Below, in pieces: positions 17,436 to 47,136 of a DNA stretch of 64,000 bases. Both the position numbers and the translations under genes were made by a program. How positions within the stretch are numbered: position 1 is the stretch's first letter; every line of letters begins with the position of its first letter. Under the pieces are notes generated by a model. The model saw only the letters and a program-made list of their open reading frames with translations, searched no databases and was not told the DNA's origin. Location of the stretch: the IMG/VR virus record IMGVR_UViG_3300021400_000025, positions 22,479-86,478 of that record. One strand, written 5' to 3'. This DNA is from a virus (taxonomy: Duplodnaviria > Heunggongvirae > Uroviricota > Caudoviricetes).

Positions 17436-17909
17436 TCACCTTGAACCAACGCTCACGATGTATGTCTTGCCGTCGGCTTCAAGTTCCCATTCCCCGGAAA
17501 TGCCAGAATAGTTGGGTTCAGAATACGCCAGTTGATGTCCATCCGGATCAAACAGCACAACTTCTGCCCAAAGAGTGCCATCCTCCCTATCGTTGGTGTT
17601 CACCTTCAAGTCGGCGAAGCAACCATCCTCGAACTGCGCAGTCTCCTTGAACACAGTGGATTCCTCGTCAAAGTCGTATTCGTCATAGTCAATCTCTTCG
17701 TTCAGAAGTTCATCCCACATCTGGAGGTCGTCGGGCCATAGGTTGATTTCAGCGTAGAGTTCTTCACCAGACTCCTTGAACATCAATATCTTGCCCTTGT
17801 TGGTCTTGAACAATCTGCCTGACTCGGATACATACGCCAATTTCCCATACTTGTTCTTGAAGTATGGGCTTTTCTCAAAAGCCTCCTTCGTTATGTTTAG
17901 TCTTTTCAT
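17436..17909 (-). CDS. 'LNITKE' N-module protein 1 (candidate internal head protein)
   Basis: N-terminal ~47 aa shared with 32023 and 46798 genes; acidic unrelated C-terminal domain. Confidence 0.7.
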   Translation of the reverse strand: MKRLNITKEAFEKSPYFKNKYGKLAYVSESGRLFKTNKGKILMFKESGEELYAEINLWPDDLQMWDELLNEEIDYDEYDFDEESTVFKETAQFEDGCFADLKVNTNDREDGTLWAEVVLFDPDGHQLAYSEPNYSGISGEWELEADGKTYIVSVGSR

Positions 17910-17930
17910 TTAGTGTTTCCTCATTATAAG

Positions 17931-19661
17931 TTAGATTCCAAGCGTCTTCAACTTCTTGTCAAGTTCCTTTGCGTCAAGTGCCGTCCTCTGTGTGGTCTGT
18001 GTTGAAGTTTCATCCTCAACAACCTCCTGGAAGTCCATCACGACCCCATCGCCCTCGCATCCATGTGCGTCTCTGAAGGAAATCTTGAACCTTCTGTTGG
18101 TTTTGGGGTCAAGGAACACCAGTCTGTCCAGTGAAATCTCCACATCACCACCCATCTTCACTGTGGTCTATGAACCCATCTCGAACATCGCGCCATTCTT
18201 CAACTTCAAAGAGGCCCCATCTTGGAATGTCACTTCCGCCCCAGAAGCGACATTCACCTTGGAATCGTCCTGGATGAAGATGTCTGCGGACGAGCTTATC
18301 GACCCCTCGAATTCTGCGATTCCCCTTGACTTCAAAAGATTGTCCGTATCGACGACATTGGAGGCAACGCTTGTGAGAACCAGCTTGTCGGTGTTCAGTT
18401 GATTCACCCTCAACTTCCACGCATCCAATTCCGAGAATCTGCCTTTCTCCGAAACCACATTTCTGAACAAGGCGTTTCCACTTGCGTCCATTCTATATAC
18501 GCCTTGCTTCACATTGAACCTGCTTGGCACATTGGGGTTCGATTTTTCCATCATGTATGTGATTGGATCGGTCAAGGACTTCACAGTCGCGTCTATGCTT
18601 TCATAGTTCCTTGCGTTCCTCTCCATCGCAGATTCAACCTCGGCATATGGATCATAGGAATCTTCGTCGGAGAATTGATCCTCAACGTCAATCTCGTCGA
18701 TCATGGCATCCTGATACGATTCCCAATTCCCATTGGTGGTCAAACGGATTCCAGATGTCGGCTCGTCCTTCTTGATTGAATTCAATGGCGTGACGACGAT
18801 TTCATCTGTGGCAAGCCTTGAATTGTCCAAAATGAGGTTGGAATCCTGGATTGTCACATTGCCCTCTATCAGGGAGTCCACATTCTTGTCTATCCTGAAG
18901 CAGGTGTCATGCTCGGTTCCACTTCCCATTATCTCAAGACACTGGAACTGGTTGTTCCTTGTGTGGGAGACGATGCCCTTGTTGGCTATTATCTGCCCAC
19001 CATTCACGGTCAATGCTGGACCATTCACAGATCCTTTGCCCATTATGATCACATCGTTCTGGACTTTCGCCGTGCCTCCCACTATGATGTCCTTCACCTT
19101 GAGGGACGAAGAGGCCGTTATGTTCAACCCAGTGAAGTTCTCCATGAAGATGTTGTTGGTCTTTATGGTATCTGCGAATATCTTGTTGCCCACCAGTTCG
19201 TCCGTGACTGCCAGCTTCTTGGTGGTTATCTGGTCCGAAACCTCTTTCTTGGAGAAAACCTTGTCTGCTTGAAGGGTGTCGAGCGTCTGCTTGAATCTGT
19301 CGGCGATGATGGTGGATGTCTACACGTCAATCTTCATCATGGAATCCCCAACCACCAGCCTTTGGCCAGCCTTGATTGTTGAAGAGTTGACGCATGCGCT
19401 GTTGTATGTGGTTTCGATTCCAATCAGCGTCTGCCCATTGTTGAATTGGACTGGCTTCAAGAACTCCACCACCTTCTTGAATGAAATCCCGTCATCCCCA
19501 GATGTGGAAAGCACATCTTTGCCATTTTCCACCACTTTGAGGCAACTGGTTGTCATCTGCCCAGTGGATTCCAGGTTTCCGTTCACCTTCATGCTGCCAT
19601 TGAACACATGGATTCCACCATCTTCACTGAAAATCGTCTCTTCTTCTTCTGATTCTGCCAT
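17931..19661 (-). CDS. Beta-rich virion structural protein (576 aa, TAGs at 19320-19322 and 18168-18170)
   Basis: Three ORF-track fragments join in one frame via two TAGs; V/N/G/S-rich repeats; late motif at 19696-19702. Confidence 0.65.
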
Positions 19662-19695
19662 TGTATCACCTTTTTGAACTTGGTTGCGCATATAC

Positions 19696-19735
19696 TATTT
19701 ACAAAAACACCATTGGGAAACCGAAATGGTAAATA
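19696..19735. promoter_or_regulatory. Divergent pair of late-promoter-like GTAAATA motifs
   Basis: TATTTAC 19696-19702 (minus) and GTAAATA 19729-19735 (plus). Confidence 0.7.
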
Positions 19736-19771
19736 ATGTCTGACAATTTCTATCAAGGTGGACATCAAAAA

Positions 19772-20959
19772 ATGGCACAGCAGATTCAATTCATCTATCT
19801 GGCTCAAAGCGAGTTCGACAACATCACACCAGACAATGGCAAAATATACTTCACTTCCGACACGCATAGGATATACAAGGGAGATGTTCTATATGCCGCC
19901 ACCACATTCGACCAATTGAACTTCTCTACAATAGAGGCAAGTGGAATCACAGTCAATGGCAGCGCAGTGGCATTGGAGGGGCATGTCCATTCTGCGTCTG
20001 AAATAGAGGGTTTGGACGCGATTGTCTCTGCAGCCACGTCCAATTTCGCCACTTGGGGACATGCGCATGTGATAGCCGACATCACCAACCTTCCTGGGAT
20101 AACATCTGGAATCACCAACGACACCATAACCAAGGTAAATGGCAATTTCACCAACCTCACGGTGTCCCAGGCGACAATAGACGCGACAACAGTGTCTGCC
20201 CAATAGATGACTGTGGGTGGTTCGAATGTCTCGGTTGAGGGGCATACGCACTCCTTTGCCGATGTGGGTGGACTTTCAAGCCATGTGTCCCAGGTGACGG
20301 CTTCCATTTCAGCATTTGGCGAACAACTTCAAGGAATAACCTCTTTGGGGATATCCAAGTCCACTGCAACATTTGGAGATTTGACCATAACTGGCGAATT
20401 GACATGCTCGCTCGACCAAGTTCAATTTGGAAGCATAGTTGCCTCTGATATATCAGTGAATGGAAGTTCAGTGGCCCTTGTGGGGCACACGCATACTGTT
20501 TCAGACATAGTGGATTTGGACACAACATCTTTCGCTTCGTCCACCCACACGCATCCCGAACTGGTGGGCATCACTTCAAGCACAATAGAGAAGCAAGTGG
20601 CGGTGTTCCAGAGTCTGAGCGTCTCCGCGGCCACGTTCGACGCGACCACGATTGTTGTGGACACCACAGTGCAGGCGCATTCTGGATCGTTCGCCTCCAC
20701 ATTGACTGTGGGTGGTTCAAATGTGGCTCTTGAAGGACATCTCCATTCAATCTCAGATGTGTCTGGTCTTGAATCTGTGGTGTCTGCGACCTCAACATAC
20801 GAGTCCAGAATAGCCTATTTGGAGGGAATTGTAAGTGCGTTGTCCACCACATATGTGACAAGAAGCGAATTTGAGGATTTGTCTGCAAGCATTGAGTCCA
20901 TTTTGGACGACATAATCAGTGGATAGGCTTCGGTTGAAAGCCAGATAAACCAGATTTAA
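19772..20959 (+). CDS. Tail fibre protein with H-x-H repeats (395 aa, TAGs at 20204-20206 and 20924-20926)
   Basis: Repeats GHVHSASEIEGL, GHAHVIADITNL, GHTHSFADVGGL, GHTHTVSDIVDL, GHLHSISDVSGL span the TAG junction. Confidence 0.8.
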
Positions 20960-20977
20960 CAGGGAGTTTCATGACCC

Positions 20978-22474
20978 ATGGGAATATATGAAAAATTGAA
21001 CATCATAAGGTCTGCAAAGACTGACATTTGCCAAGCCATCTTGGACAAGAATCCTTCTGTCCAGCCAACTGACGACATCAGACAATGGCCAACGGCCATT
21101 GCTTCCATATCAGGAGGTTCTTCACCTTCAGCGTCTCAGAACGATGTTGTGTTCATTGACTGTGATGGAAACATTCTCCACTCGTATTCTGCCGAGGAAG
21201 TGGCAAGCATGACAGAACTTCCATCTCTGCCCATACGGGAAGGATTGACATGCCAAGGATGGAACAGAACACTACAGGAATTGAAATCCTATGTCGCTAC
21301 CTATGGACAGTGCGATGTGGGTCCGACATATATTACTGACGATGACCTTACGAAAATAACCATCACAATTCCAGACGCAAAGTACACAAGTGTAAGCATA
21401 TTGTTTTCCCAAACTACAGCAAATGGAGTTCGAGTCAGATTTGGTGACGAAACCGGAACAGAATGGCAGACCACTTCCGGTACGGGGTAGAAGACATTCT
21501 CACATACATACGCACCTTCTCAATATCCGGCGACATATGTCATAACACTTCAGGTAGCAGATGGAACCATGACGCTTTCTGGGAACCTGTTTGCGCATAG
21601 TGGCACCCACAACGCAACCAACCCTCTTGGCGCGTGGAACAGTATGGTGAAAAAAGTCAACATAGGAAACAAGGTCACAAGCATTGGGCAGTATGCCTTT
21701 CAGAACTTCTATTCCCTGGAGGAACTGACGATTCCAAACAGTGTGACAAGCATCGGAAACACAGTGCTTCAGAACTGCTATTCCATCAAGTCTGTGGCAA
21801 TCCCAAGTGGGGTCACAAGCATGGGGAACTATGTATTCTCGTGCTGCTCGTCTCTTTCCAGTGTCCAATTTCCCCAAAGTGTGACAAGCGTTGGAACGAA
21901 CTTCCTGGAATATTGCAGTTCACTGAAAAGGGTTTCCTTGCCAGAAACCATCACATCTCTCGGAACCAACGTCTTCTATACGTGTTATTCGTTGAAGAAG
22001 GTTATCGTGCCAAATGGTGTCACAAGCATGGGAGCAAGCCTATTCTACCAGTGCAGAAGCTTGGAAGAGGTGATATTGCCCAGCAATCTGACCACAATAG
22101 GCAACACGATGTTCTCCTACTGCCAAACTCTTCAAAAGGCATATCTTCCAGATTCACTGACCACGATTGGTTCTTCAATGTTCAACTCTTGCTACTCGTT
22201 GAAGGAGATTCGTATGCCACAAGGAGTTTAGACTATAGGAGAACACGCATTCGTCAATTGCTATGGACTCAAGACATTGGACTTCAGGAGAAGCACATCA
22301 GTTCCAACGCTTGTCAATGTAAACGCATTCCAGAACACCTCAACGGCGAAGGAGATTGTCGTGCCTGACGACCTATATGACGATTGGATAGCAGCGACGA
22401 ACTGGAATTCGACATCGTATTAGATAAGCACAAGCATCGTAAAGGCGTCTGAATCGTCGCTTGGACCACTATAA
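20978..22474 (+). CDS. BspA-type leucine-rich-repeat (LRR_5) tail/adhesin protein (498 aa, TAGs at 21488, 22229, 22421)
   Basis: About nine xPxxVTSIGxxxFxxCxSL repeats; the last repeat (MPQGV*TIGEHAF) and the WIAATNW cap continue across TAGs. Confidence 0.85.
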
Positions 22475-22497
22475 TTGAACAATGGAGGATTTGACAA

Positions 22498-22935
22498 ATG
22501 GCAGTAATATATGAAGAACAAGAAGATGGAATAGTGAAAGCCTATTCCGACCAACACAAGAAGATATTTGGTGGATTTCCTGAAGCTGAATATGATGTGG
22601 TCTATGACCCGAAGGATGCACATAGAACCTATGTCGAGACAGACAAGTACATTTCGTCACAAGAATCCACTTCAACAACAAGAAGGTTCTCCAAATTGTC
22701 TCTTGAATCAGCATTATTCCAAATGGGGCTTCTTGACAAGGTGGATGCATTCATAGATGCGCAATTGGTTGAGAATGAGCATGGGCAGCAAGTTCCGTTG
22801 AGGAGATTCTACAATACTGCCAACGAGTTCAGAGAAGACCATCCATTGTTCGAGAAGTATCTTGGACTTTTGAAGCCTGTTGTCGGTCTGACGGATGCCC
22901 AAATAGAGCAACTTCTTGATTCTTGCCAAGCATGA
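22498..22935 (+). CDS. Tail-fibre-associated hypothetical protein
   Basis: Within tail operon; ..ANEFREDHPLF..LGLTDAQIEQL-type C-terminus; GGAGG RBS. Confidence 0.6.
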   Translation: MAVIYEEQEDGIVKAYSDQHKKIFGGFPEAEYDVVYDPKDAHRTYVETDKYISSQESTSTTRRFSKLSLESALFQMGLLDKVDAFIDAQLVENEHGQQVPLRRFYNTANEFREDHPLFEKYLGLLKPVVGLTDAQIEQLLDSCQA

Positions 22936-22956
22936 CTGGGGAGGGAGTGAATTGAA

Positions 22957-24186
22957 ATGAGCGTACAATCAGCGATAGACAACTTGAAGGGTAGAGTTTC
23001 TGATGCATACGACGCACTTGAAGCAAAGGGCGCGACGATGCCTTCAACCAAAAATACGGCAAACCTTCCAACTTCAATTGGAAGCATTGTTGAGTTGAAA
23101 GGAGAGACAAAAACCATCATCCCAACAACTTCACAACAAACAATCAATCCATCTTCTGGCAAGAATGGCATAACTCAAATAACCGTCAATCCAGTGACTT
23201 CAAGCATTGATGCGAATATAGTTGCATCAAACATCAAGAAGAATGTTTCAATATTGGGCGTCACAGGAACATATGAAGGATCTGGCGGAGGCGGAGGCGA
23301 GCTGCAGGGTTATACCGTGACAGTCAGTCAATATAATAGCGACTATCCAACTGCACTTACTTGTTTCAAGACTGATGGCACGTCATAGGTTGTTTATAGT
23401 GGCACAGTCAACGATGTGGTGTATGTTGGATTTGAGGTTGGTGGCAGTTCTGGAGATGGCGTGGGTGCATGGGAGTCAAGCAACGTTGCACACGATGTAG
23501 TACATGGTATAGCTGATTCGTACACGAGTAGTGGTTCTGGTACCACATATGTTCATCTAACATAGGATACGTCGTTTTTAATGAACGGTTTGTGCTTGTT
23601 AAAAGGGACGATGATTAATCTCCCAAATGGGAAATCCAAACCTATAGAAGAAATAGACTATGACGATGAACTTCTTTGTTGGGACTTCGACAACGGCAAG
23701 TACGAGAAAGCGAAGCCATTCTGGATAAAGAAAGCCCAGAAGAACACCTTCTATTGGATAAACAAGTTCAAGTCAGGGAAGATCATAAAGACCACTGGGA
23801 CGGTTGCTGGACATCGTTTCTTCGACATGGAGGAGAACAAGTTCCTCTACAACATAGAATGCAAAGGTCATCTTTGCTACACCATGAATGGACCAGACGT
23901 TCTTCTTGATTGCGAGTATGTGGAAGAGGATTGCGAGTTCTACAACATCTACACCAACTACCACATGAACCTCTTCGCAAATGGAATTCTCACTGGATTC
24001 AGATACAACAACCTCTATCCAATAAAGGACATGAAGTTCGTGAAGGGTGGAAGAGCCAAGAGAAGCAGAGAAGAGTTCAAGTCTATTCCTGACAGTTGGT
24101 TCTACGGCATGAGGTGTTCCGAGCAAACTGATTCTGCTGAAGAGATAACGTCATATGCTTTGTCAAGGGAAATCATAAAGAAATGA
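22957..24186 (+). CDS. Virion-associated protein with C-terminal Hint domain (409 aa, TAGs at 23386 and 23563)
   Basis: N-terminal ETKTIIPTTSQQTINPSSGKNGITQITVNPV..VSILGVTGT module; CLLKGTMINLPNG..PIEEI..TTGTVAGHRF..FYNI..LFANGILTG Hint blocks. Confidence 0.75.
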
Positions 24187-24587
24187 ACGAATGCGACATA
24201 TATCTGTTCTGCCTTTGGCGCAGGTCGATGGAGTTTTGGAGGCGAATGCTTGAAGAGTTGAAGGGAAGTTATGAGATTCGCCTTTAGATGAGGAGTTTCT
24301 TCCCGAGGTCAATCTCAACTTTGAGGAGATTCTACAATCAGGAGAAGCTCGTGGGAGGATATCAGAGGAAGCTTGATGATGTTGAAGGGGAGTTCTTGTT
24401 TTGCGTTTGCAAGGACGAGAACATGAACGATTTCAAGAAGTTGTTTGATATGAAGAGGAAACTGAGGTCTTTGAGTGGAATAAAGCGCGACTACAACTTC
24501 ATCCACTCAAGCAACACGCTTGAAGAATTTGTGAGACAACTAGAAATAGTGGAGAGAATGCCATGGCAGTAGGTGACATATACATAA
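24183..24587 (+). CDS. Possible NDP-kinase-like fold protein (134 aa, TAGs at 24285 and 24570)
   Basis: ATG overlaps upstream TGA; frame open only via TAG; YNFIHSSNTLEEFVRQLEI resembles NDK HxSD..RE motif. Confidence 0.4.
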
Positions 24588-25174: not shown

Positions 25175-25230
25175 CGCAGTGCTTCCCAACAACCTTGTAT
25201 TTGACACCAGTTGTGGTAAATAGTCATATT

Positions 25231-25512
25231 ATGGCTACGATACCAAAGAATCCATATAACAAGATGAAGAACACCTCAGTTCAGATGGATAATTTCATCT
25301 TCACCGAACTGAAGTCCAACAGAAAGTCCTTCTACGTCTATTGTGGGAAGTCCAAGAAACGCATATACCAAGGCAATTGCTCCAAGGAGATAAAGAACAT
25401 CTACTTCGACGGGACTTGCGTGGTGTGCATTTGCGACAACAAGACGTACATATTCGGGCCGCAGGACATGAGGTATCCATTGAAGAATTGGCGGCAGATA
25501 AGGGAGTTTTGA
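25231..25512 (+). CDS. Small basic Cys-containing protein (stand-alone domain copy)
   Basis: GTAAATA at 25216-25222; paralogous to the C-terminal domain of 25515..26396. Confidence 0.7.
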   Translation: MATIPKNPYNKMKNTSVQMDNFIFTELKSNRKSFYVYCGKSKKRIYQGNCSKEIKNIYFDGTCVVCICDNKTYIFGPQDMRYPLKNWRQIREF

Positions 25513-25514
25513 TT

Positions 25515-26396: not shown

Positions 26397-26422
26397 CAGA
26401 CTTCATGTGTATAATTCCATAT

Positions 26423-27406: not shown

Positions 27407-27409
27407 CAG

Positions 27410-30632: not shown

Positions 30633-30635
30633 ACA

Positions 30636-31604
30636 ATGAAGAGAATTGTAAAAGAGAGCTACGAGGTTTCTCCTGAACTTGAAAAACGTCTGAACTCCAT
30701 CCTATCTGACGAGTTCTTGGCTGCTGAGGCGTATCGTCTGGCGATTGTCGCGATGAAGGGCAACAAGCAGCATAGGCTTGAGGAAATAGCTGAGAAGAAT
30801 GGGGAGGACGAACTTGAAGACCACTTCAAGAACCTCTATGAGTGGATGCAGTCAAAGGGAATCAAGGTTGTGACTGACCGGGACGAAATGGCTCAAATCA
30901 CGAACGGCTCGATTCTGAAGTTCAAGGATGGAATGTCCACGAAGGAGATTGTTGACCAGTTGATTCTTTCCGAGGAAGAAGCCATTGACATCTACGAAGA
31001 CACGATTCCACACACTGAGCTTGACTTGAATGTGATGCTTTCTGGCTTCTTGAAGGACGAGAGGGAGCATCTCAAGGAACTTGTGGATTGCCGCGACGAA
31101 ATGGGTGGAAAAGCCCCCATTGAGGACAAGGTAATTGATTTGGACGATGAACCAGACGAAGAAGAAAATGAAATGGAACAAATTAACGAGGATGCAAAAA
31201 TGATTCACAAGGATAAACCCTTCAAAGTAAGGAATATTGATTGGGATGCTGACCTCCCAACAGGACCAATAAAAGTGGAGTTTGGCGCACCACTGGAGTC
31301 CAGATCTGGTGACGAGAAATATAACATCACTTTGTGGCTTGAAGAAAAATATGAAGCAAAAGTTCTGGATTTTGACTTCAAGCGCGTTCGCAACTTTGAC
31401 GAATATTCTCCTGACTATGTGGTGAGCAACATAGAATGGGATGTCAATCTTCCAAAGTCAACAGTGGTTAATGTGCCTTATGATGTGGTCAAGGCTGGCT
31501 ACGATGAAGTTGAGGAATACATTTCCGACTATCTGTCTGACACATATGAGTTCACCCATTATGGGTTTGACTGCCCACAGCTTGATAGAATGTATAATTC
31601 ATGA
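30636..31604 (+). CDS. Ferritin-like four-helix-bundle protein fused to two tandem small domains
   Basis: DEFLAAEAY..EDELEDH..EEEAIDIY..DEREH diiron-type E/H pattern; duplicated VxNIxWDxxLP..LxxxY..FD domain. Confidence 0.75.
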   Translation: MKRIVKESYEVSPELEKRLNSILSDEFLAAEAYRLAIVAMKGNKQHRLEEIAEKNGEDELEDHFKNLYEWMQSKGIKVVTDRDEMAQITNGSILKFKDGMSTKEIVDQLILSEEEAIDIYEDTIPHTELDLNVMLSGFLKDEREHLKELVDCRDEMGGKAPIEDKVIDLDDEPDEEENEMEQINEDAKMIHKDKPFKVRNIDWDADLPTGPIKVEFGAPLESRSGDEKYNITLWLEEKYEAKVLDFDFKRVRNFDEYSPDYVVSNIEWDVNLPKSTVVNVPYDVVKAGYDEVEEYISDYLSDTYEFTHYGFDCPQLDRMYNS

Positions 31605-31930: not shown

Positions 31931-32022
31931 ATTTGTGTAAATAATATTCGAGTTGAACATTCAATGACTAGTCACATGAGGGTGTTCACAAGAGACAACT
32001 AAACTCTATAGAGGAAATCAAA

Positions 32023-32850
32023 ATGAAGAAATTGAACATTACGAAGGAACAGTACGATGAGAGCAAGTATTTCAACCAGAAGTACGGTGCCCTCAAGTTT
32101 GTTTCTGAGAGCGGCAAGCTCTACAAGACCGACAAGGGCGTTGTGATTGCCCTTGAGTCCGCGAAGGACGACGATGATGAAGAGCCAAAGGGCGACGATG
32201 AGGAGCCAAAAGGTGATGATGAGCCGAAGGGTTCTGATTCCACTGAAGGCGCTGACGAGGTGAAGGATGTTGTGAAGGACGTTCTCGTTGGTGTCATTGA
32301 CACGGTGAAGGACATCGCTGCTGACAAGGGCATTGAACTCCCTGGCGAAGACGAGGGTGATGCTTCTGACGATGATGACGAGGAAGATGAAGTTGACTTT
32401 GACGACCTTGACGACGATGAACTTGACGATCTTCGCGATGGTGAGCTGGAGATTGGCGAGGGTGATGAGTGCAAGGATGGCGAGTGCAAGGGTGGCAAGT
32501 GCCTTGACAGGGAGTGTGGTGGCAAGAAGCCAGCATTCCGCGAGAGCGCAGCCCGCAAGGCTCGTCTGGCAAAGGTGCGCGAGTCCCTTCGCCGTCGGAT
32601 CCGTGCAAGGAAGGTTCTTGAATCCATCCGTCGTCGTCGCATGGTGAAGAAAATGATGGAGGCTCGCAAGGCTCGCATTGCCAAGAAGGTTCTTGAGTCT
32701 GCCCGCGAGCGCCGCCTTGCCAAGAAGGTGATGGAATCCAGGAAGCTCCGCGCAAGGAAGGTTCTTGAGTCCATTCGCAGACGCAGACTTGCCAAGAAGG
32801 TCATGGAGTCTCGCAGACTTCGCGCACGCCGAGCAAGGCTTGCGAAATAA
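32023..32850 (+). CDS. 'LNITKE' N-module protein 2 with acidic linker and Arg/Lys-rich ES repeats
   Basis: Shared N-module, D/E-rich middle, repeated KV(L/M)ES(I/A)RRRR; GTAAATA at 31937-31943; strongly biased codons. Confidence 0.8.
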   Translation: MKKLNITKEQYDESKYFNQKYGALKFVSESGKLYKTDKGVVIALESAKDDDDEEPKGDDEEPKGDDEPKGSDSTEGADEVKDVVKDVLVGVIDTVKDIAADKGIELPGEDEGDASDDDDEEDEVDFDDLDDDELDDLRDGELEIGEGDECKDGECKGGKCLDRECGGKKPAFRESAARKARLAKVRESLRRRIRARKVLESIRRRRMVKKMMEARKARIAKKVLESARERRLAKKVMESRKLRARKVLESIRRRRLAKKVMESRRLRARRARLAK

Positions 32851-34567: not shown

Positions 34568-37500
34568 ATGAATTCATCTTTGACAAGACCATAGTCCCTT
34601 TAGGAACTCTACAAGACATACTTCTCCTTCGCCAATAGGTTCAAGTTCACCGACCTCCTTCGGAACTACATCCAGAACGAGGAGTGGAAGGACAAGTCGC
34701 AGGAGCCTGTTTGGGAGTTGCTTTCCAAGATCTCTGACGATATTGGGGCTGTCCTCACAGACGACATAGTGAACTACACAAGGAATGTGGTTGACATCAA
34801 CACATGCAAGGTGTCGGCGCTGTTTGAGCATGGCAAGGCGATCATGTACAATCTGGAGCATCTGGTGAATTCCCTTGCGTTTCTCCCCAAGAGGATGCAA
34901 TGCCTTGTCGACATCTTTTCGATAAACCCTGAATATCTGGTGGGCAACTTCAAGAACCACATCCTCTCTGACCAGGTTGTTCGCGAGATTCTAATCTATC
35001 TTCGGGAGAACTCCAAGAATGGGAGTCTTCTTGGGAACGACATCATGGACAAGTTGATGGAGGATCCGCATGGTCTTCTGGACATGGATGTGTATCGTAA
35101 TTTCGTGGTTGAGCTGTTCTACACCACCATTGTGCAGGCTCTGTCTGCCGGTTACAACACAGGTCTGCATCCACAAGACGAGGACACATAGACGATAGCG
35201 TCCAACATGTTGTTCTTCGAGCGGGAGCATCAACAGGAGATTGTTGCCAAGTTGGATTAGTACAAGTCATGGGTGGACAAGTTCATCTCCAATGAACGCG
35301 ACCACAAGTGGAATTCCCCAGACATGCAGATGTGGGATGTGGTGGAGACCATCAAGAACCAGAAGAGAATTTCCCCAAAGTTCAACCCATTCAAGATTGC
35401 CGACCACATCTTCCTCAATGGACTGAACCCCCAGAACAGTCTTTCCGAGGACGAAATGGATTTGGTGGAGAAGGTTCTTGAATGGAGATGGAAGACCAAA
35501 TATGACTATGAAAAGGAGTCTTTTTCATCCGACTTGTCCACTCAGGGCGCGTATTGGAAGGAGTTGGAATTCTGTGAATGGGTGAAGATGGTGATGTATG
35601 TATGCAACAATCTGAACAACTTCAACCAGGCTGTCATGTCATATGATGCGCCATCCAACAGATTCCTGTGCGATACTGGGACACTTGATGACTCCAGCGT
35701 GAAAGTTGTCCAGATGTTCTGCGAGGATGGGAAGCATGTGGTGGAGAATCCTTCCACAGGAGAGGTGGCATTGAACCGAGACATGATATTGAAGGTGGCC
35801 AAGTTCATGTGCGACTACGCATTCCACATCATGGATGTCAGGGAGAACATGAAGACCATCGCCCAGAAGCATGCGATGCGTGGCTCTTCCGCATTGCTTG
35901 TGCATCTTGTCAACGATTATCTGATGAAGGAGTTGCCGTTTGTGCGCGATGCCTTGCAGGAAGGGGATGTCCAGGACAACAGAATCAGATTTGGATGGGA
36001 GGTTTCTCCTCAACAATACAAGAACCATGGAAATGTCCATGTGCTTGAATACATGGACGACAACGAATACTTCAACATAGACCCAACAGAGGATGTTCGG
36101 TTCACCAACACCACCAACGCCAGATATTGGGAGCAGTTGGAGGGGATGGAGTATGACGATTCACTGGGCGTGTTCACCAAGGGTCAGATAAGGAAATTCT
36201 ACAGCGAGGTGCTGGGGGTGGGGAGGCTTCAGCCCAACAAGGCGAAGGACTACGATTACATACACGACTTCTTGGTGGATTTGTTCAAGATTGGCGCGAA
36301 TCCCATCAAGAAGAACGATGATGAAGATGGACTGGTGAACCCAATAGATGTCCTTGCCAACAATCTTGAAGAGGAATATGGCTACACGAAGCAGGATAGA
36401 TTGAACGTCCAGAACAATGTGGATTTGAGGAAAAGCCAGGAAATGCAGTTCATGGAGTATTTCGGTGGCAATCTGGACAATTTTTCAGGTCGGGGAATGT
36501 ACGACTACATGAACAACAGATTGTTCTATTGGAAGAACGATACATATGCATCCCATGTCCTGCATCCATTCATGTACAACTTGAAGCTGTGGAATCGGCT
36601 CAACAACATCATTGTCAATGGCTACAAGGACTATGCCAACGATTTTCTCCAGGACTACATGTTGTCCTCCAAGGTCAAGTTCGATGAGTTGTTTGGGAAA
36701 TTTGGCGAAAGCAGGAATTTCTGGAAGTACAATGTCATGGACTTGACTGGCTACACGACCAGATACGAGGCCGCGATCAAGGACGAACACAGGGACGATG
36801 ATGCTGGCACAGTAAGCAGTCTGACAGGTTATGATGGTCTGTTCTATCCAGACGCCGCGAAGGAGTTCCTTGAGTTGATGACAAGTGTGGGCGATGGGAA
36901 TTTTGAATTCAAAGACGAATTTTTCACTGGGGACGTGAGTGTATATGGGGAAGATGGAGACTGCTATTGGGATGATGGCGATGAAATTGAAAACAATGAT
37001 GACGAAATTGAGCACTGCTTCATCAATGGACGGGACGATTTCATCGCGCAGATCTATTCCGTGTATTGGCAGGTTGAGCGAACAACCTTGGTGGAAAAAA
37101 CGAGGGAGAGAAAAACTGGTGGTGGGTGGTATTTCAAAAAGGTTTCCGAGGACGATTCCTTCTACACCAAATGGTATTCCCACTTGAACTACACACGTTC
37201 TGAATACCAGAAGATTGCGATGCAGCTCTGGTATTGGAGGGACAGAATCAAGGAATTGATAACAACCGAGTATCCAATCAAGAAATATTGCCTTGACATA
37301 CAGGGGAACTCGCTTGTTCTGGTATCAACCTTCACATCAGACGACAAGGACAGCAATCCATATCTGATAGACCTTCAGTTGACGCAGACAAGGGTTGTTG
37401 ATGGCCTGGGCGTGGCTTCCACAAGAAATGCCAACAAGAATGTGTCGTTCTGCAGCAATGCCCTTCGCATGCCATCTGAGATGTGGGTGAGATGGAAGTC

Positions 37501-40500
37501 CAATCCCATTGCCATTCCTGCGTTCGACGTGTGGTACGATGTGAAGACTGGAGACATTGAGTTCGACAAGAGGTTCAGAAACGACTCATCCAACAACAAG
37601 GAGTTTGGGCAGTTGACCCATACAGACAACGATTGCAACGACAGCTTCAAGGTGGTGCTTTCAAGGTGGCGCGAGACATATGGAACTTTGCATGGCGAGT
37701 TGTTTGGACCCGGCCACAACAGATTCCCTGTGTTCTTCGATATGGAGCAGTCGGCGAATGTGTTGGCTCTTGCGTCGTGGTACATCATGCCTGAAGTGGA
37801 TAATGATGGGATTGTCCTTCTGGATGGGTTTGGAAGATCCATGGGGGCAATGTGTGGCAAGAATCCACTGCATGTGGTGTCGGTGGAGCGTCCATATTCC
37901 TCCACATTGGAGTACAATTGGACGAAGTATGAATCTGAAGTCTTCCCCACATTGAATGATAGTTCGGAGTATTGCTTTGACGCATATCACATCTGCCCCG
38001 CAGATGGCTCAATTCTTCTGCCGATGTATGGCTTTGAATGCTCTGATTCAGAAGACAACTTCAAGCAGATTTTGAAGTGGAAGATGTATGTCATCCCAGC
38101 GAGAAGGTTGAAGAGAAAGGACTTTTCTGCCAATCCCAGAATGATCCTCTTGGATGGGAAAATGGACTTGAACAAGGAGATTCATCTGGATTCATCCAAT
38201 TCGCCAAAGACGCTTTTCTTTGGGCACAACGTGAAGGTGTGCCGCAACACCAATGTGGTTTTCGCCCCATGCGACAACAATGGCGTGAACATGCTGAGGT
38301 TGGCGTTAATGGGCACTTTCGTGGATGGACAGGAACTTGATTCGTTCAAGTCCAGCTCTTGCCACGCCAAGACGAGATACGAGTTTGATTCGCGCAATGT
38401 GCAAGAGCTGTCCATGTTGAAGGGGAGGTATTTCGATCAGAGCGCGACACCTCAATATATTGATGATGGCATAAGGAGAAGGAAGTTCAACTCATATGAT
38501 TCCCTTGACAAGTACGCATTGGTTGTGGATTTCAAGATTCCTTTGGATGAACATGAAGTTTTCAAGCAATTGGGTGGACAACCCACTGGCATGGCATACA
38601 ACATATTGGGTGATGCGGGATGCATTCCACATTTCGCCAACCAGTCCTTGGTGAAGTATGCTGAATCTGATGGTGGCACCGCGTACACTTGGAAGAATGC
38701 CTTTTTGAATGGCAAAAACCACATGCAATTCGAGTTGTTGGGGCTTGATGATGTGAATGTCGCCAAGACCTATGACTTCATGCAGAGGATGGTGGTGGAT
38801 GATTTGACCGACAACTGCCAGACATTGTTGTGTCCGGCCAAATTCATGGACGATATATACCGCATATGGTGTTGTTCAAGGACTCGAAAGACAAGGTTTG
38901 GGGATTTCCCATATGACATGTATTTCGAGAGCGAGTACAAGGACTATGCCAACCCCAGATTGGAGTTCTACCCCGGCGAGAATGCGATGACATGGACTCC
39001 ATAGGGCGAGGATTTCGCATTGGACATTCCAGAGGGGCAGGATGTGCGCGCTGCGCTTGACAACACATATGTCTCAATCCTCAGAGCGTCTGATGGGATA
39101 ATCCAGAACGAAAAGAGATACATCTTGAGACCTACGCCAATCTCCCAGTTCATCTTTGGTGGAACTGATGCATAGAGTGGTGGGTATGTCAAGTGCAACC
39201 TCTCCAAGTGGCAGTCTGCCAACATAGTGGGCAATCAAAGAAGACCCGCGCAGACAATATTCACCGGAACCCAACCTCCATTCAACTACGACAACGATGG
39301 CGAGAGGATGTATTCTCTTCCCGAGGAACTGCAATATGGCAATGGCATATGTGGGGTGTCCGAGATTGGCTTGTCTGTGGATGTTGTGGATGTTGTGGTG
39401 AACCATGTTGCGATGGAGGACGACTTCCAGCCAATCTACAACGAAGATGGAAGCAGAAAGACCATTTCCAAGACGGTAAAGGCGGTGAAGCCAACTGTGA
39501 GGTTCAAGAAGTTCACGATGCCTGAGAACCCATCATTGTCCGATGTGGTGCAGAACAATGTGAGCGTCATAGCCCCAGGGGAGATTCTGGTGGTGTTTTC
39601 GCGCAAGAATGTGGACGACATAGCGAAGTATCACATCCTCAGCAAATCGTCCAATCTGTTCTTCTATGGATCTCTTCCAAAGAGTCCAGCCCAGCATCCC
39701 AACGAGATTCAATATTCTGACTTCAAGGTTGACACCAGCCTTAGATTGGAGCAGACATCTGAGACATCATGGAGATCCATTTCGGTGGATTCAGATGGAA
39801 GACCGTTGTTGGAGTTCAATCTGGATGATGTCAAGTCCAAGCGCAACGACAATCTCCCACCATATCATGTGGAGGTTGGTGGACAGGAATGGATTCTTCA
39901 ACAAGGTTCAGACTATCCTGTGAATGGCTACAAGAAATTGGAGATGGAGGACTTGCCAGAGATTCCGGCCCATAGGGGGAACACTGCGGCATACGCCATC
40001 CCAGACAAAGGTGGATTTGTGCTTGCTCACAAGGTCAAGGAAGTGCCCATGGGATATCTGGACTACCTCTATGTCAAGAATGGGGCGTTGGCGTTCAAGA
40101 TAAGCGAGGAGTCTGAATCCTTCTCGGAGACATTCTCCATGACACCCCCATTCTATGTGGACGAGGTGTTGAAGAACAAGTTGGAGGACTTGAACGATGT
40201 TTAGATTCTCCAGGATTCTTCAACGTTCATCCACCAGAGCGAAGATCCCAGCAAGGTAAGTGGTTGCTCTGCGCTCAATCCAGTGGCGATGGACGCGGTG
40301 ATTGACTATGGCATCGAGGAGGCGGATTTGGACGATTCCAGACAGATAATCTGCACTGAGGATGGAAAGGCGATCCAACTGGACAACATGGACATGAAGA
40401 CCAGACTTCTTCTTCAGCTTGATGAGAACGAGATTGACGATTATCTCAAGATATACACCAACTATGTGAGGGTGGACGACAAGCATGGGGATTGGCACTA

Positions 40501-41587
40501 TGATCTCTACTTCAACATCCAGAATCTGTTCAACCCACCATTTGAATACATCTCCTCCATCACACATCAACCAAATGTGCTTGTCCTCCCAGATTCTTAT
40601 CTGCGTCTCAGTGGGGACAAGTTCAAGAAGGTGTATGACGAGAATGGGGTTTGGACGCACAATGAGATAGACCCAGAGAAGGTTGAGCAGTTGAAGAAGG
40701 GTGGCAAGCTGTCCCTGTATGGGCAAATCAAGGCATTCTCCAACGACAGGCTGGTGGGCGTCAGATTGGTCAAGTTGTTCACCTACACAATCCACAACAT
40801 TTCGGACGACAAGCCAAAGTTCCTTATTGAGAAGACATTCGACATCACCAAGTCCTCCTTGACATCCTCGGAGGGGAATCCTCTGAAGATTGAGTTCTCT
40901 GATGTGATGTGGCAGATGAAGCCAGAATGGTACGAGGATGACCAGTTCAAGGTGTTGAAGGAAGATGTTGTTGTGGTGCAGCCTGTCAAGATACACTATG
41001 ATTGGAGTGCCACAGACGATAATAGAATAAGTAGAATATCATTTGACATAGTCAACGACATGATTGACTTCGACAATTGCCCTGAGTTGTGTGGATATGA
41101 CGAACATGTGCATGCGTTGAAGAGATGGGATGGCGAATCCACCCACACGCACTACGATAGATGGAGCGACAGATGCATGGAGCTGAAGGTGGATCCAACC
41201 ACCAAAATCCCCAGGATGACCTTGACTTGGGATGAGGGTTGTGGGTACAACTTCGAGACTGTGTATTTGAAGTGGAGAGTTCCAAAGGGATTCAACGCGA
41301 TGGACATCATGGACAGGCTTCAGGGATATGCGTTCTCATCCACTGCCGAGAATGTGGTGGTGGATTGCCACAACCCAAGTTCGCATCCAATGGAGATTGT
41401 TCCAGGAAGGATTGTGATGCGCGTTCCCAAAAAGGGCGAGATGTATCTTGGTCTGGAGCATTCCACCACGCATAGGAAGAATGGATTTGTCTTGAAGGGT
41501 CTAGCAAGCACTTTGAAAGAGGCGATAGGAAAGGTTGTCTCTGAATCTGAAATGAAAACAAACGCACAGAATAGAGAGGTGAAATGA
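34568..41587 (+). CDS. Giant 2339-aa probable virion protein (seven in-frame TAGs)
   Basis: One frame from ATG 34568 to TGA 41585-41587 interrupted only by TAGs at 34592, 34601, 35189, 35258, 39002, 39173, 40202; GTAAATA at 34552-34558. Confidence 0.8.
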
Positions 41588-41588
41588 A

Positions 41589-42461
41589 ATGGGATATGCA
41601 GAAGTGAACAAGGAATTGGTTTCCAAATACAAGGTTGACGACACCATATTGGAATCCTACTTCAAGAATGCAAGCAACCAGAAGGTTGATGGGGTGGTGT
41701 TTCCATTGAGAATCGACAACAGGCAATATTGCTCCCCAACCGACTACCAGGGAAGCAAGCCGAGTTGCTGTGGCTACTCCACGGCGCAGATATTGGAATC
41801 CCTCAACTGGGCTAGAACAGGAAAGATTGTGCAGATGGATGCGGATCAGATATACGCAAAGTCCAAGGAGACGGACAAGTAGATGGGTCAGGGTGGAACA
41901 TATCCAGACTTGGCCATGGTGAAGGGGCTTGAACTGGTTCCATGGGGGTGTCAATATGCGTTGAAGACTTCCAATTCAGACGATGTGGATGTGTTGAAGC
42001 GGGCAATCCACCAGAACATGCTCGTGTCAGTGAACATGAACGTCACCAGAGACATATACGATTTGGATGGGGACAACTTCGTGTACAATGGCAATGGCAA
42101 CAAACTTGGTGGACATTCAATGGTGTGCTGTGGATATGACGAGGAATCGAAGATGCTCATCATGCAGAACCATTGGGGGACAATATGGGGGTTGAAGGGC
42201 TTCTTCCTGTGCCCATATGACGTGTGGAGAAAGCAAAACTCTTTGACTTGCTGGTATGAAAGGGTGGAAGCCACCACTTCACATGCGAAAAGGAGCAAGA
42301 CCACCAAGGTTGATGTGTCAAAACCCGAGAAGCCAAATGCTGAAAAGCCAAATGCCGAGGAACATCTTCCTGGCAAGAAGGAATCCACCACTCCTCCAGA
42401 TGTGGGTGTTTCAAGCAAGGAAATTGTAAATAGTATCACAACCAACATTCAACAAGGGTAA
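41589..42461 (+). CDS. Papain-like (C1) cysteine peptidase (290 aa, TAG at 41880-41882)
   Basis: QGSKPSCC (catalytic Cys) before the TAG; GGHSMVCCGY and QNHWG (His/Asn) after it. Confidence 0.85.
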
Positions 42462-42467
42462 AGTAAA

Positions 42468-45400
42468 ATGAGAATAGTCATAGACAAGGATGTTTCAGAG
42501 ATTCAACTTCTTCAGGAGTCATATGAAAAGAGCAAGCCATCGTACAAGGTTCTTGCGGTGGAGAATGGCGAGAAGTTCGTGTATGGAACGAAGATTCGCA
42601 ACATCAATGAAGCAGTTGACGCTGTGTATGACATTGCGTGGGACGAGAACTTCAACGATTGCCAATCTGAGATTGTGGAGGTGTTTGGCGAGAGCGAACA
42701 TGTGATTTGGTCTTCTGACCCCAAGGTGCAGGTTTGCGAGTCAGTGTTGTTCGTTGAAGCTGGAGACAACAAGGACGGCAGCACGGCGAACAAGGACGCC
42801 AAGACTGGTCAGAACCAAAAGGGTTTCTTTGGCAAGTTGAAGGATGCCGCTGGAAAGGCTGCTGCAGGTGCCAAGAAGGCTCTTCAGGGACTTGCCAAGG
42901 GACTTAACATAGTTGGGGCGATGACGAAGCAGTTCTCAAAGGACGCTCTCAAGAAGTGGAGAGAGGGAGGATTGTTCAACAAAGAAGGACGCATCACTGG
43001 TCTTGGCTACAAGGTCATGACGGGACAGGTGAAGAACACCATTCCAGTGGACACTGGAAACAAGAACGACGACATCACACAGGCTTGGAAGGTTGCGCAG
43101 TCAAATGCCATGAATGCCCTCAAGAAGCAAGGATATACCGTGAATGGCGAAGTCAAGGCAATTGTCAAGACCGACAAGGATCCAATCACATTGTCTGCTG
43201 ATGTGACTGACAAAGATGGCAACGCACAGACAATCGAGTTCAATCAGGATGGAACAATGGTTGATGGTGGTGCCCAGAATGCCCAGAATGGTGGCGAAGG
43301 TGCTAACGCCAATGGTGGTGGAAACAATGCTGCTGGAGCCAATGGAAAGGATGGTGGTGGAGCTGGTGGCGCAAACACCCAGCAGATAACTCCTGACCAG
43401 GCGCAGAAGAACCCCAAGGCAGCTCTTGGAAACCTCGCCACGCGCGTGGCGAACCTTGAAAGGGAGGTTGGAATTGCGGCAGAATCCAAGTGGAACTACA
43501 ACAACGAGCAGAAGTTCGCCAAGAAGGATGGATATGAGAGGCAGACCATCAAGAGGTTCTTCAACGAGATGAACGATGAGTCTGTGAAGAACATCAAGTT
43601 CATCCGCCCAGATGGCACATTCAAGTTGTATGACATCTCCAATGGATCATAGGCGTATTCTGAATTCAAAAAAGACTTCAGGGAGTCCACATAGAAGGTT
43701 GAGAAGTCTGGTGACTTCAAGGAATGTCGGGTTGTCATTGAATCTTCTGGAAGCAGAAGCAAGTTGAATGGCTTCAAGTTCTCCGACTTTGGCGTGGCTG
43801 ACGATTTCGATTCAGATTCCAAGACCATCATCATCAGGGAGAGCGTAATCAAGAATGTTCCTGAAAAGCCAGATGGTAAAAAAAAAGCAAATGAACCACA
43901 ACATGAATCCATTGTGAATGAGTCCTCGATTGAGGGCATCTCCAAGAATCCTGAGCCAAATGGATTCACATTGGAGTTGGACAAGAAAGATCCACTTGAA
44001 GAGGTCAAGTCCCTTCTTGCAGCCATGAACAAGTACAATGGATTCGACAAGAAGAAGATTGATGACATCCAGGATGGTTCAATATCAGATGGCGTGACAA
44101 CATATCCAGACGTTCCAACTTTTGAGACTCCAAAGAAGCAGGAACCACTGGAAACTCCAAAGCAGGAAACGCCAACAATTGAAACTCCAGATGTTGTGAA
44201 GGAAGCCGAGGGCGATGATGATGCTGGTGGTGGAGGAGACGACGCTGGTGGAGACGCTGACCCATTTGCTGGTGGAGGAGACGATGGTGGTGGTGATGAT
44301 GCTGGTGGTGGCGACGATCCATTCGCTGGAGGAGGAGATGACGCAGGTGGGGGAGATGATGCTGGGGGAGATGCAGGCCCATTCGCTGGTGGTGGTGACG
44401 ATGCAGGTGGTGGTGGAGACGCAGGCGCCGCAGACATGGGTGGTGGAGGAGATGCCGCAGTAGATGGAGCCACAGAAGACAATCCCACCTCAGGAGAACC
44501 TGCACCAGACGATGCAGTGAACACTGACGCCCAAGACAATCCCAAGTCCCAATACAACATCAATGTGACCAAGCCTTTCAACCAGGACGAGAATTTCTCC
44601 CTCAATGATGAGGAGCAGAAGGAGTTCTTTGGGAAGATTGACCAGTTGGTGAAGATCCCCGACATGGACAACTATTCGCTTTACCTCTACCAGATAACGC
44701 CAGAGAACATGAACCTTGACGATGTTCACTACATCGAGGCTCTTTACCAGTTGTCTGTGAAGTTGGGGCTGCTTGAGGACATCTACGCCGACTCCAACTT
44801 GCTTGACAAGTACAGCTCCTACAAGTATTCTGTTCTGAAGGATGGGGAGGATGACGCGACCCAGGGGGAGGACGCATTGACTGTGACCGAGGGGACGACC
44901 AAGGTTCAGGACGATAACGAAAAGAAGGCTGCTGAACTCAACAAGAAGATGAAGCAGAAGAACGACGACAGGCGTGGTTCAGCATGGACTAAACTTGACA
45001 AGGACAAGAATGGCGTTGACAAGCCTGTGATAATAGACACAAGGAAGGATGGCTGGACATTCGACGGAAAGGATAATGACAAGAAGTTGATTGACTCCAC
45101 CGACGAAGGCAGTTTCCATGGACTTGGTTGGATTGCCACCTTCAAGGCAATGCAGTTCGGCTCCCCAAGGTATCTCTCCCTCTACATCAAGAGGAATGGG
45201 GATGCAAAGGCAGAGGAACAGTGCAGAAAATACCTTGAGAAGCTCTCCTATACGGAGATTGAGTTCGTGAACATCGACGAGGTTGACCCATACGAGTATG
45301 TCTACAGAATGGGTCAGGGAATGAAGACCCCAGAGACTGTGAGGACGGAGAAGTATGCGAACGAGGAGGTTCCAGTGACCTATTTCGAGAACAACGAAAC

Positions 45401-45848
45401 CAAGGTTCCAGAGTCAATCCCAGGGGACATCAAGCGCGATGTCAAGAGGGTGATAACCAAGTTGAACGCGGAAATCCGTGGGACAAAGCAGTTCAACTTC
45501 TTGAAGGAATGTGGCGTTGAGAAGCCACAGCTTGACCATCTTGAGTTCTTGACGCACTACAAGACAGCGCAGGTCAACGAGACATTGAGCGAGACGACCT
45601 ACAAGTTCGTGCTGAAGAAGAACGATAGCATGATGAGCAGGATGTTCTTCTCCAACATGAAGGAGAAATTGTTCAGGTATCTTGGGACATTCGCAACCAA
45701 GTACAACATGGAATGTGGATGCGAGGCAACGCCAACTGCAGTGACAATCAGCTTCATGAGAAGCGATCTTGGAAATCCTGGATACGATCTTGAGACAATG
45801 GTGGACGCAGACGTTGCGCTTCCAGAGACAACAGCGGACCAGATTTGA
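42468..45848 (+). CDS. Large multi-segment late protein (1126 aa, TAGs at 43650 and 43692)
   Basis: Two ORFs join in frame; G/N/A- and G/D-rich low-complexity linkers; GTAAATA at 42426-42432; several xES motifs. Confidence 0.75.
44213..44465 (+). repeat. Coding low-complexity GGDDAGG(DPF)AGG repeats
   Basis: Repeated GATGATGCTGGTGGTGG-like units inside CDS 42468..45848. Confidence 0.8.
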
Positions 45849-45859
45849 CAGAGGATGAC

Positions 45860-46774
45860 ATGAAAATGAAAAGAAGAAGAACAATCAAGGAAAGTTCCAG
45901 CGAGGCGTTGATTAAGCAGGCGTTGGAAGCGGCAATCAAGGCAAAGAATCTGCTGGACGATGCCGCGAACTCAATACGGGACGCAGTTGGCGAGACATTC
46001 CTTTTCGCAAGGCTTGACTCCCATTCAATGGATCTTGACGACACCATTGACGATATCAAGGGGGTTCTGAATGGAACTGTTGACCCCACTGACGATACTG
46101 TTGATGCCACTGATGGTTTCGATAATCCCTTTCTTGAATCCAAAAACAAGTTCGTCAAGGAGGAATCCTCATATAACGACAAGGCATTGCAGAAGTTGAT
46201 GGCGTTGGTTGAGTATTATGGAGACCTACGCCAGGGTTGGGGCCGCACACTGGCCACAGGACAAGACACTGAATACTACAAGAAAAAGGCGCAGCAGACT
46301 CTTGACGACATCAAGGAACATGCAACGCCATACATGGCATACACAGCATATGATGGCAAGGAGGAGTTCGAGGAAAGTGGCTCGGCGGAAGGTGAGACCG
46401 AGTGGTTTAACAATCATGGCGACATGAAGAAGAATCTTCCAATGGACTGCATTTTGGAGTGCTCGTCTGGTGGAAGTGTTGACGATTCTGTTGACTATTG
46501 GGTGAACAAGTTGAATTTCCATGCCCCAACCGAAAAGGGGTTGAGTTATGTTCGGGAGTATGGTCTTGACGACATTGAACCCGAGGATGTTGACAAGTAC
46601 GTTCTTTGGATAATGTGCGGAAACATCAAGGAAGAGGCCTATGAGTTCTGCCGCGATGGTTCTGAATGGGATTATGTTGACAAGGACGCATATCCCGAGG
46701 ACATGGATGATTGGGGAGAGGAAGATTGGGATAGATTCCAGGATGAAGTCGCAATCTGCCACCTTGGGATGTGA
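45860..46774 (+). CDS. Acidic multi-domain hypothetical protein (MKRRRTIKES tag)
   Basis: GAGGA RBS; segments separated by IKES, FLES, VKEES, FEES. Confidence 0.7.
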   Translation: MKMKRRRTIKESSSEALIKQALEAAIKAKNLLDDAANSIRDAVGETFLFARLDSHSMDLDDTIDDIKGVLNGTVDPTDDTVDATDGFDNPFLESKNKFVKEESSYNDKALQKLMALVEYYGDLRQGWGRTLATGQDTEYYKKKAQQTLDDIKEHATPYMAYTAYDGKEEFEESGSAEGETEWFNNHGDMKKNLPMDCILECSSGGSVDDSVDYWVNKLNFHAPTEKGLSYVREYGLDDIEPEDVDKYVLWIMCGNIKEEAYEFCRDGSEWDYVDKDAYPEDMDDWGEEDWDRFQDEVAICHLGM

Positions 46775-46797
46775 TTTTAACCAATGAGGAAACTGAA

Positions 46798-47136
46798 ATG
46801 AAGAAACTTAACATAACGAAAGAGAGATTTGAGAAGTCCAGGTACTTCACGAAGAAGTATGGCAAACTTGAATATGTGTCTGAATCTGGCAGACTTTTCA
46901 AGACGAACAAAGGCAAAGTGCTGATGTTCAAGGAATCTATCGTGGATGATGATGACGATTATGCTCGTTTTGCAATGAGTGACTTGACTGATAACATAGA
47001 GAAATACTTGAAGTCAAATAAAGACGAGCTTGATTTGGAGTCTGTTGAAAGAGTTATGGACTACAACACCGCCTTGCTTCTGACATTCAATACAGGGAAC
47101 AAAATCAAGATTTTGTTTGACGATGAGTTAGACTGA
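46798..47136 (+). CDS. 'LNITKE' N-module protein 3
   Basis: MKKLNITKERFEKSRYFTKKYGKLEYVSESGRLFKTNKGKVLMFKES shared module. Confidence 0.75.
   Translation: MKKLNITKERFEKSRYFTKKYGKLEYVSESGRLFKTNKGKVLMFKESIVDDDDDYARFAMSDLTDNIEKYLKSNKDELDLESVERVMDYNTALLLTFNTGNKIKILFDDELD

Follow-up and report, generated by a model that had tools for sequence, protein, structure and literature searches.

A shared 46-residue module on unrelated proteins of a 418-kb gut phage as a candidate prohead-targeting propeptide

The stretch of DNA analyzed here (64,000 nucleotides, called the window throughout) covers bases 22479-86478 of a 418,068-bp virus record, IMGVR_UViG_3300021400_000025, which has direct terminal repeats and 46.7% G+C. 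Three of its genes, which we call A, B, and C, open with the same module of about 46 residues and then run into unrelated cargo sequences. We propose, at about even chances, that this module is a removable propeptide that targets proteins to the prohead and is cut off behind a glutamate; we infer both the targeting and the cutting. It would most likely be a large counterpart, predicted to be folded, to the capsid targeting sequence that the T4 internal proteins carry. T4 already shows this principle, and the long propeptides of phiKZ-like phages are suspected of following it. What the libraries and literature that were searched do not describe are the module as such, with its size and predicted fold, how many cargo families it has, the Glu-flanked linker that accompanies it, and its internal copies.

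Genes A (17436-17909, minus strand, 157 amino acids, aa), B (32023-32850, plus strand, 275 aa), and C (46798-47136, plus strand, 112 aa) align without gaps over their first 45-46 residues, where 25 of 48 columns are invariant and the mean column identity is 80%. The ribosome-binding region upstream of the three genes is likewise similar (AATGAGGAA). Past the Glu-Ser junction, the three proteins have no mutual similarity. Their parts are as follows, in window positions:

17772-17909, minus strand: gene A module, residues 1-46, ending MFKE, next codon Ser
17436-17771, minus strand: cargo A, 110 aa, acidic, orphan
32023-32157, plus strand: gene B module, a divergent variant, residues 1-45, ending ALE, next codon Ser
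32158-32523, plus strand: acidic part of cargo B, 122 aa, net charge -41, with short tandem repeats and a Cys-rich stretch
32524-32850, plus strand: Arg/Lys-rich part of cargo B, 108 aa, net charge +39
46798-46935, plus strand: gene C module, residues 1-46, ending MFKE, next codon Ser
46936-47136, plus strand: cargo C, 66 aa, acidic, orphan

A preliminary description of this DNA had recognized the shared N-terminal module, at about 47 aa, and the unrelated sequences behind it, and both observations hold. Its count of three copies was too low. The profile search that it had suggested, run on the genome and on a protein library, showed that the genome holds nine full copies, all of which begin an open reading frame (ORF) or follow a Met. 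Of two complete relatives whose capsid proteins show 80-81% identity, the one of 414 kb has nine copies and the one of 434 kb six. When the nine cargo parts were compared all against all by BLASTP, the best match was gene A with a cargo outside the window, at a nonsignificant E of 0.034. We also noticed a mini-module of 13 residues, about the length of a T4 targeting sequence, at genome 301714-301752 (minus strand, locus L010), where MKKLNITK is fused directly to KFNE|S at the head of an 88-aa ORF.

The similarity of the module at the DNA level, which had also been pointed out, is real, but only codon constraint lies behind it. Among the nine paralogous modules of one genome, the mean proportion of synonymous differences (pS) is 0.75, which is saturated, against a nonsynonymous proportion (pN) of 0.17. 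Because the synonymous sites are saturated, the similarity must be kept by selection at the protein level. The same saturation rules out DNA homogenization, recent duplication, gene conversion, and a DNA or RNA element as its source.

To find how far the family extends, the nine-copy profile was compared with 1.84 billion cluster representatives (50% identity), and it matched 380 clusters at E<=0.001 and 355 at E<=1e-10. The counts that follow were made on 149-150 representatives, taken from the best 150 of the 380 clusters, each of which matches across the full module at approximately 97-117 bits. In 119 of 149 representatives, the module stands at residue 1; in 14 of 149, more than 20 aa of an in-frame upstream domain precede it. 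Cargoes have a median length of 103 aa (quartiles 71-159, maximum 347 aa), and 88% of them carry a net negative charge, while the module has a median charge of +8. Pfam gave no domain for 147 of the 150 representatives and incidental matches for the other three, and none of the family members that were looked up is named in any source.

A Glu lies 1-3 residues past the last conserved Phe in 149 of 150 representatives (F-x-E in 136, F-x-x-E in 12). In the position after it, Ser is found 113 times, Gly 18 times, and Ala 6 times, so that one of these small residues is present in 137 of 150. These counts describe a sequence motif, not cutting. In the preliminary description, the module ended exactly at Glu-Ser. 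This is true of all three window genes, but the feature that is conserved is a Glu followed by a small residue, and the module of gene B, ending ALE|S, is one residue shorter than those ending FKE|S.

A second element is a linker, ES-(T/S)KKFG(K/R)KF-x-(K)-E with a small residue next, which 26 of 150 representatives contain. It may come straight after the module, separate two cargo domains, or lie at the C-terminal end. In the 418-kb genome, linkers of the KKFGKKF type occur in module genes only. Cargo domains are also reused with exact borders. For example, the cargo A cassette, which starts SGEELYAE, directly follows the module in gene A, while in protein P0152 of another phage it follows a KKFGRKF linker as the second cargo. 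The AIMGGG, GTESNPRF, SSTDDIYGF, and SIKDIAPG cassettes are reused in the same way. When every domain found directly behind the module in one protein was aligned to an internal position in another, Glu occupied position -1 in 29 of the 47 internal junctions obtained. A domain related to cargo A was also found without the module, in a human-gut phage contig.

The module can itself be internal. An ORF of 346 aa at L008:958-1998 (genome 388740-389780), open in the standard code, encodes a 181-residue domain ending VMES-RK, then the module, and then a cargo. With a ribosome-binding site and a Met in front of the module, both a long and a short product are possible at this site. The same upstream domain was seen in a relative's protein, P0006. 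Internal modules are present in P0006, P0014, P0039, P0045, P0102, P0112, and P0121, which have common upstream domains and differing cargoes; P0039 has, in addition, a truncated second module and then a linker. At locus L005 (genome 340251-341348, minus strand), an in-frame TAG ends the annotated module gene, a second KKFGRKF linker follows immediately, and behind it come a second TAG and 70 more open codons. Only with TAG decoded as an amino acid would this be a protein with three cargoes.

Short leaders of the form MK..(I/L)(V/I/Y)KE followed by Ser or Ala, which resemble the first nine residues of the module (MKKLNITKE), were noticed at window 30636-31604 and 45860-46774 and at genome 388180 and 407814. 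As a class, short MK...(I/L)xKE|S leaders at other N-termini head five genes against 3.1 expected, which is not significant.

AlphaFold2, run on the nine-sequence alignment, predicts two short helices and a three-stranded sheet for the module, with a mean predicted local distance difference test score (pLDDT) of 81, and models the junction as coil directly behind the last strand. The preliminary description had spoken of a portable, folded tag. Portability, selection on the protein, and a predicted fold are all borne out, but to speak of an N-terminal tag on three cargoes is too modest for what resembles a polyprotein built of cassettes, since the module is also internal to longer ORFs and a second linker motif exists. 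Its remark that the module was not recognizable as a described family agrees with the searches made here. Pfam and PHROGs held no relevant family for the three window proteins at E<=1, and the module profile matched nothing among PDB sequences below E 0.17. Fold searches with the module model, which at 50 residues has little power, gave a best E of 0.95 (Foldseek, PDB) and a best Z of 2.4 (VIA-align wide), and its neighbors in the ESM Atlas were unrelated and gave no usable match. A literature search for the motifs returned only unrelated designed peptides. Nor was there a match in Pfam, PHROGs, or PDB to a known non-structural domain, such as a DNA-binding one, which the preliminary description had named as evidence that would speak against a packaging tag.

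The loci that carry the module are hypervariable among relatives, in which the cargo is swapped, the gene is absent, or the domain has moved. At the locus of gene A, between the fibre-like and GroES-like genes, relative G001 has a module gene with another cargo and relative G002 has no module gene. At the locus of gene C, G002 encodes a module-cargo-linker protein. A further gene concerned lies just 5' of gene C:

45860-46774, plus strand: 304-aa protein with a short leader ending TIKE|S

This protein's C-terminal domain occurs at the same locus in G002 as a module-linked cargo behind a GKRFGNKF linker. Gene B, including its acidic-then-basic layout, is conserved in G002. Its Arg/Lys-rich part contains eight (R/L/M)-E-(S/A) sites at a spacing of 11-13 residues, and this tail is a candidate precursor of short, highly basic peptides, if it is cut. 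The succession of a -41 stretch and a +39 tail resembles a charge-masked precursor, and the peptides could possibly be DNA-condensing. Contigs from RNA libraries were also seen, with gene B fully covered in the source sample and a gene-B-like contig in an independent sheep-gut RNA library; such contigs cannot prove transcription or its timing and were not used as evidence.

The predicted genes mark the 418-kb gut phage as T4-like. Its major capsid protein belongs to the Gp23 family (PF07068, 238.9 bits) and matches T4 gp23 in the PDB at E 3.8e-35, and a prohead protease of the gp21 type (Peptidase_S77) is encoded at genome 224572-225309 (PF03420, 43.8 bits against a cut-off of 27). Other genes in the genome include those for a baseplate wedge subunit, a DNA polymerase, a clamp loader, and a GroES-like protein. 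Two head genes lie in the window:

3470-4516, plus strand: scaffold-like coiled-coil ORF directly 5' of the capsid gene, with one in-frame TAG at 3728
4557-6179, plus strand: T4 Gp23-type major capsid protein, candidate site LFTE|AAP, Glu54 codon at 4716-4718

T4 gp23 loses 65 residues at FLTE65|A66, as seen from its full-length and mature chains (PMC9958956). In the capsid protein studied here, LFTE54|AAP is identical in this phage and its two relatives and is followed by a stretch that varies among relatives, and an alternative site, TVE, is not conserved across the three genomes. LFTE|AAP is a candidate maturation site resembling T4 FLTE|A, an assignment that relies on the local motif and its conservation. 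It follows the same pattern, Phe-x-Glu and then a small residue, as the end of the module. In the S77 protease, ITE|S and VRE|S stand close to the N-terminus and a further pair of Glu-Ser sites close to the C-terminus; T4 gp21 trims nine residues off its own N-terminus (PMC9958956). A point in the same direction is that, among 541 ORFs, the scaffold-like one has the top excess of Glu-Ser dipeptides (10 against 3.8 expected). With a Gp23 capsid protein bearing LFTE|AAP, a gp21-type protease, a terminal Glu in nearly every module, and cassette borders that follow Glu, the analogy with T4 drawn in the preliminary description has become more concrete.

We picture the following course. Late in infection, proteins with the module-cargo layout would be made, together with longer “trains” (cargo-module-cargo or module-cargo-linker-cargo). 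The basic module, with a net charge of about +8, would carry them into the scaffolding core of the prohead. There, the S77 protease would cut behind the module's terminal Glu (F-x-E|S/G/A) and behind that of each linker, and small, mostly acidic cargoes would be released, or short basic peptides in the case of gene B. The freed cargoes would stay in the head and would probably be delivered with the DNA.

The features that bear on timing are a promoter-like motif and the use of TAG. GTAAATA occurs at 16 sites in the window against 2.0 expected and at 117 sites in the genome, nearly all of them 20-90 nt 5' of start codons and often in divergent pairs. Three sites bear on the window genes:

31937-31943, plus strand: GTAAATA, 80 nt upstream of gene B
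19696-19702, minus strand: GTAAATA at the head of the gene A operon, which holds a fibre-like 576-aa gene (two in-frame TAG codons), gene A, and the GroES-like gene
42426-42432, plus strand: GTAAATA at the head of the gene C operon, which holds the genes for a 1126-aa protein (two TAG codons), the 304-aa protein, and gene C

GTAAATA also heads the scaffold-capsid operon and the protease gene, and it directly precedes five of the nine module genes. Such motifs do lie upstream of genes A, B, and C, which the preliminary description had placed in late-motif operons, while the label “late” is one that we infer.

The genome encodes 33 phage tRNAs and a tmRNA, and one tRNA has the anticodon CTA. A block of 32 tRNAs lies at genome 231541-242512, the separate CTA-anticodon tRNA, a reader of TAG, at 268611-268687, and the tmRNA at 238260-238595. 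Recoding of TAG as Gln, which would be a late-type feature, is confirmed. Two of the phage's nine module genes contain an in-frame TAG, one with the linker motif right behind it and the other with 330 more open codons. In the relatives, TAG occurs inside the module exactly at positions where other copies have Gln, so these genes must be translated while TAG is read as Gln.

We favor the propeptide reading as the best fit to the modular architecture, to borders made of Glu and a small residue, to a protease and head of the T4 type, to features of a late type, and to plastic loci. However, several points weigh against it. The system is known here from genes alone. The module is 2-4 times longer than a T4 targeting sequence and appears folded, it has no homology in Pfam or PHROGs to that sequence or to the internal head protein families, and most cargoes are acidic. 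Genome-wide, F-x-E-[SAG] occurs 83 times where 75 are expected, which is no enrichment. A phmmer alignment puts the capsid LFTE|A approximately 11 residues off the T4 site. The Glu-Ser excess of the scaffold-like ORF is modest (p=0.006, uncorrected for the 541 ORFs), and conservation does not discriminate Glu-[SAG] (10 of 13) from other Glu residues (23 of 31). PHROGs recognized neither this ORF nor most of its neighbors, and when module residues 1-52 and the scaffold-like protein (window 3737-4513) were modeled as a complex, the score was 0.02, which gives no verdict either way. Finally, GTAAATA may not be strictly late, since it also lies upstream of an operon that runs into the DNA polymerase gene.

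The genes around A and C deserve mention beside these points. Directly 3' of gene A, in the same operon, lies a GroES-like co-chaperonin with an N-terminal extension of about 100 residues (window 16756-17346). Window 19772-22471, transcribed divergently from this operon, encodes a phage-tail-repeat protein and a leucine-rich-repeat protein of the BspA type, each with in-frame TAG codons. A papain-family cysteine protease gene (Peptidase_C1, E 1.2e-9; window 41589-42461), with one in-frame TAG, lies upstream of gene C in the same late-type operon. An ORF of 2339 aa at window 34568-41587 has seven in-frame TAG codons, a GTAAATA motif in front, and no family match.

Phages are known to combine a conserved N-terminal anchor with variable C-termini. 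The module could accordingly be an adaptor that is never cleaved and is retained in the working protein, where it docks varied C-terminal domains on one partner, whether a virion site, as in tail-fibre or decoration proteins, a nucleic acid, or a host protein. Besides matching this design, such a role would suit a module that is predicted to fold alone and is strongly basic, and gene A adjoins the fibre-like, phage-tail-repeat, and leucine-rich-repeat genes. We nevertheless consider it unlikely. An adaptor leaves unexplained the near-constant junction of Glu and a small residue, the cassettes that restart directly after Glu in other contexts, and the short Glu-flanked linkers and internal modules preceded by Glu-Ser, and the cargoes are small, orphan, acidic domains without fibre features.

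The proteins may instead be processed as polyproteins for a purpose unrelated to head loading. They would then be cut in the cytoplasm by the S77 protease or by another one, such as the neighboring papain-like enzyme, and the module would be a pro-domain that acts as a solubility or chaperone aid for acidic cargoes or as a temporary inhibitor. The grammar of Glu and a small residue, the train architectures, and the opposite charges of module and cargo speak for this account, and the papain-family gene in the gene C operon could supply the enzyme. We hold it to be improbable for three reasons. Glu-specific cutting is a hallmark of gp21-type prohead proteases, which are active inside the prohead (PMC9958956, PMC5694885). 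A single pro-domain for hundreds of unrelated cargoes suits an address better than a specific chaperone or inhibitor, and nothing ties the papain-like enzyme to sites of Glu and a small residue.

A third account, that these are precursors like those of ribosomally synthesized and post-translationally modified peptides (RiPPs), with a conserved leader and hypervariable cores scattered in the genome as in prochlorosins, is highly improbable: the likeness (many scattered paralogues, one leader, hypervariable C-termini, repeated recognition linkers) is superficial, the cargoes, with a median of 103 aa and lengths up to 347 aa, are far above RiPP cores, there is no match to a Pfam leader family and no double-Gly motif, the junction being Glu-Ser where prochlorosins have Gly-Gly, and the neighborhoods of the three window genes, made up of fibre-like, GroES-like, lipoprotein, clamp-loader, and orphan genes, showed no gene for a modification enzyme.

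For the prohead-targeting propeptide, the closest known system is the targeting sequence of the T4 internal proteins IPI, IPII, and IPIII (and Alt), which is removed by gp21. It too is an N-terminal leader on unrelated, fast-evolving proteins, it ends at a hydrophobic-x-Glu protease site, and it belongs to a phage with a Gp23-type head and an S77 protease (PMC9958956, PMC5694885). The internal-protein genes of T-even phages have only the targeting sequence in common and are otherwise diverse (PMC3012670, PMC5694885), and their loci are likewise hypervariable among relatives (PMC3012670). The T4 leader has 10-20 residues, whereas the module has 46, is predicted to fold, and has no sequence similarity to it. 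Unlike the T4 system, the one described here comprises 6-9 genes per genome and several hundred cargo clusters, its cargoes are mostly acidic, its module may also lie inside a protein, several cargoes may be strung together in one ORF by a second, Glu-flanked linker, and it is known only from genes.

The head and ejection proteins of phiKZ, 201phi2-1, and SPN3US also come from giant phages with a gp21-type protease that cuts after Glu (PMC5694885). Their long propeptides have been proposed to play a role like that of the T4 targeting sequence, and paralogues keep their N-termini while the rest diverges (e.g., SPN3US gp53 and gp54, with identical N-termini; PMC5694885). Those propeptides have 80-160 residues, few paralogues, and an (S/A/G)-x-E motif, in contrast to 46 residues, hundreds of unrelated cargoes, and F-x-E here, and no homology was found in Pfam or PHROGs. 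Encapsulin cargo-loading peptides and P22 scaffold fusions are similar in that a short, portable tag takes diverse cargo into an HK97-fold shell. Those tags are C-terminal, remain uncleaved, and bind the shell or coat protein, whereas the module is N-terminal or internal and is probably cleaved.

A broader picture is possible, and we offer it more tentatively. A clade of T4-like gut megaphages of about 420 kb may use a two-part cassette grammar in which an address module (46 residues, folded) and a KKFGKKF linker (12 residues) both end in Glu-Ser. The prohead protease would cut the cargo trains inside the capsid into many small acidic effectors and basic peptides, and each phage, with more than 350 cargo families to draw on, would thereby hold an arsenal that can be exchanged and is injected along with its DNA. 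If the module is indeed a head-loading tag, several hundred orphan proteins of uncultivated gut megaphages would become probable packaged and injected effectors and would form a candidate list for anti-defence and host-takeover functions. The prohead protease specificity of an uncultivated phage would become testable in vitro, and a natural folded tag with a defined cleavage junction would be available for loading foreign proteins into large capsids. It would also mean that the principle of the T4 internal proteins scales to a combinatorial polyprotein system.

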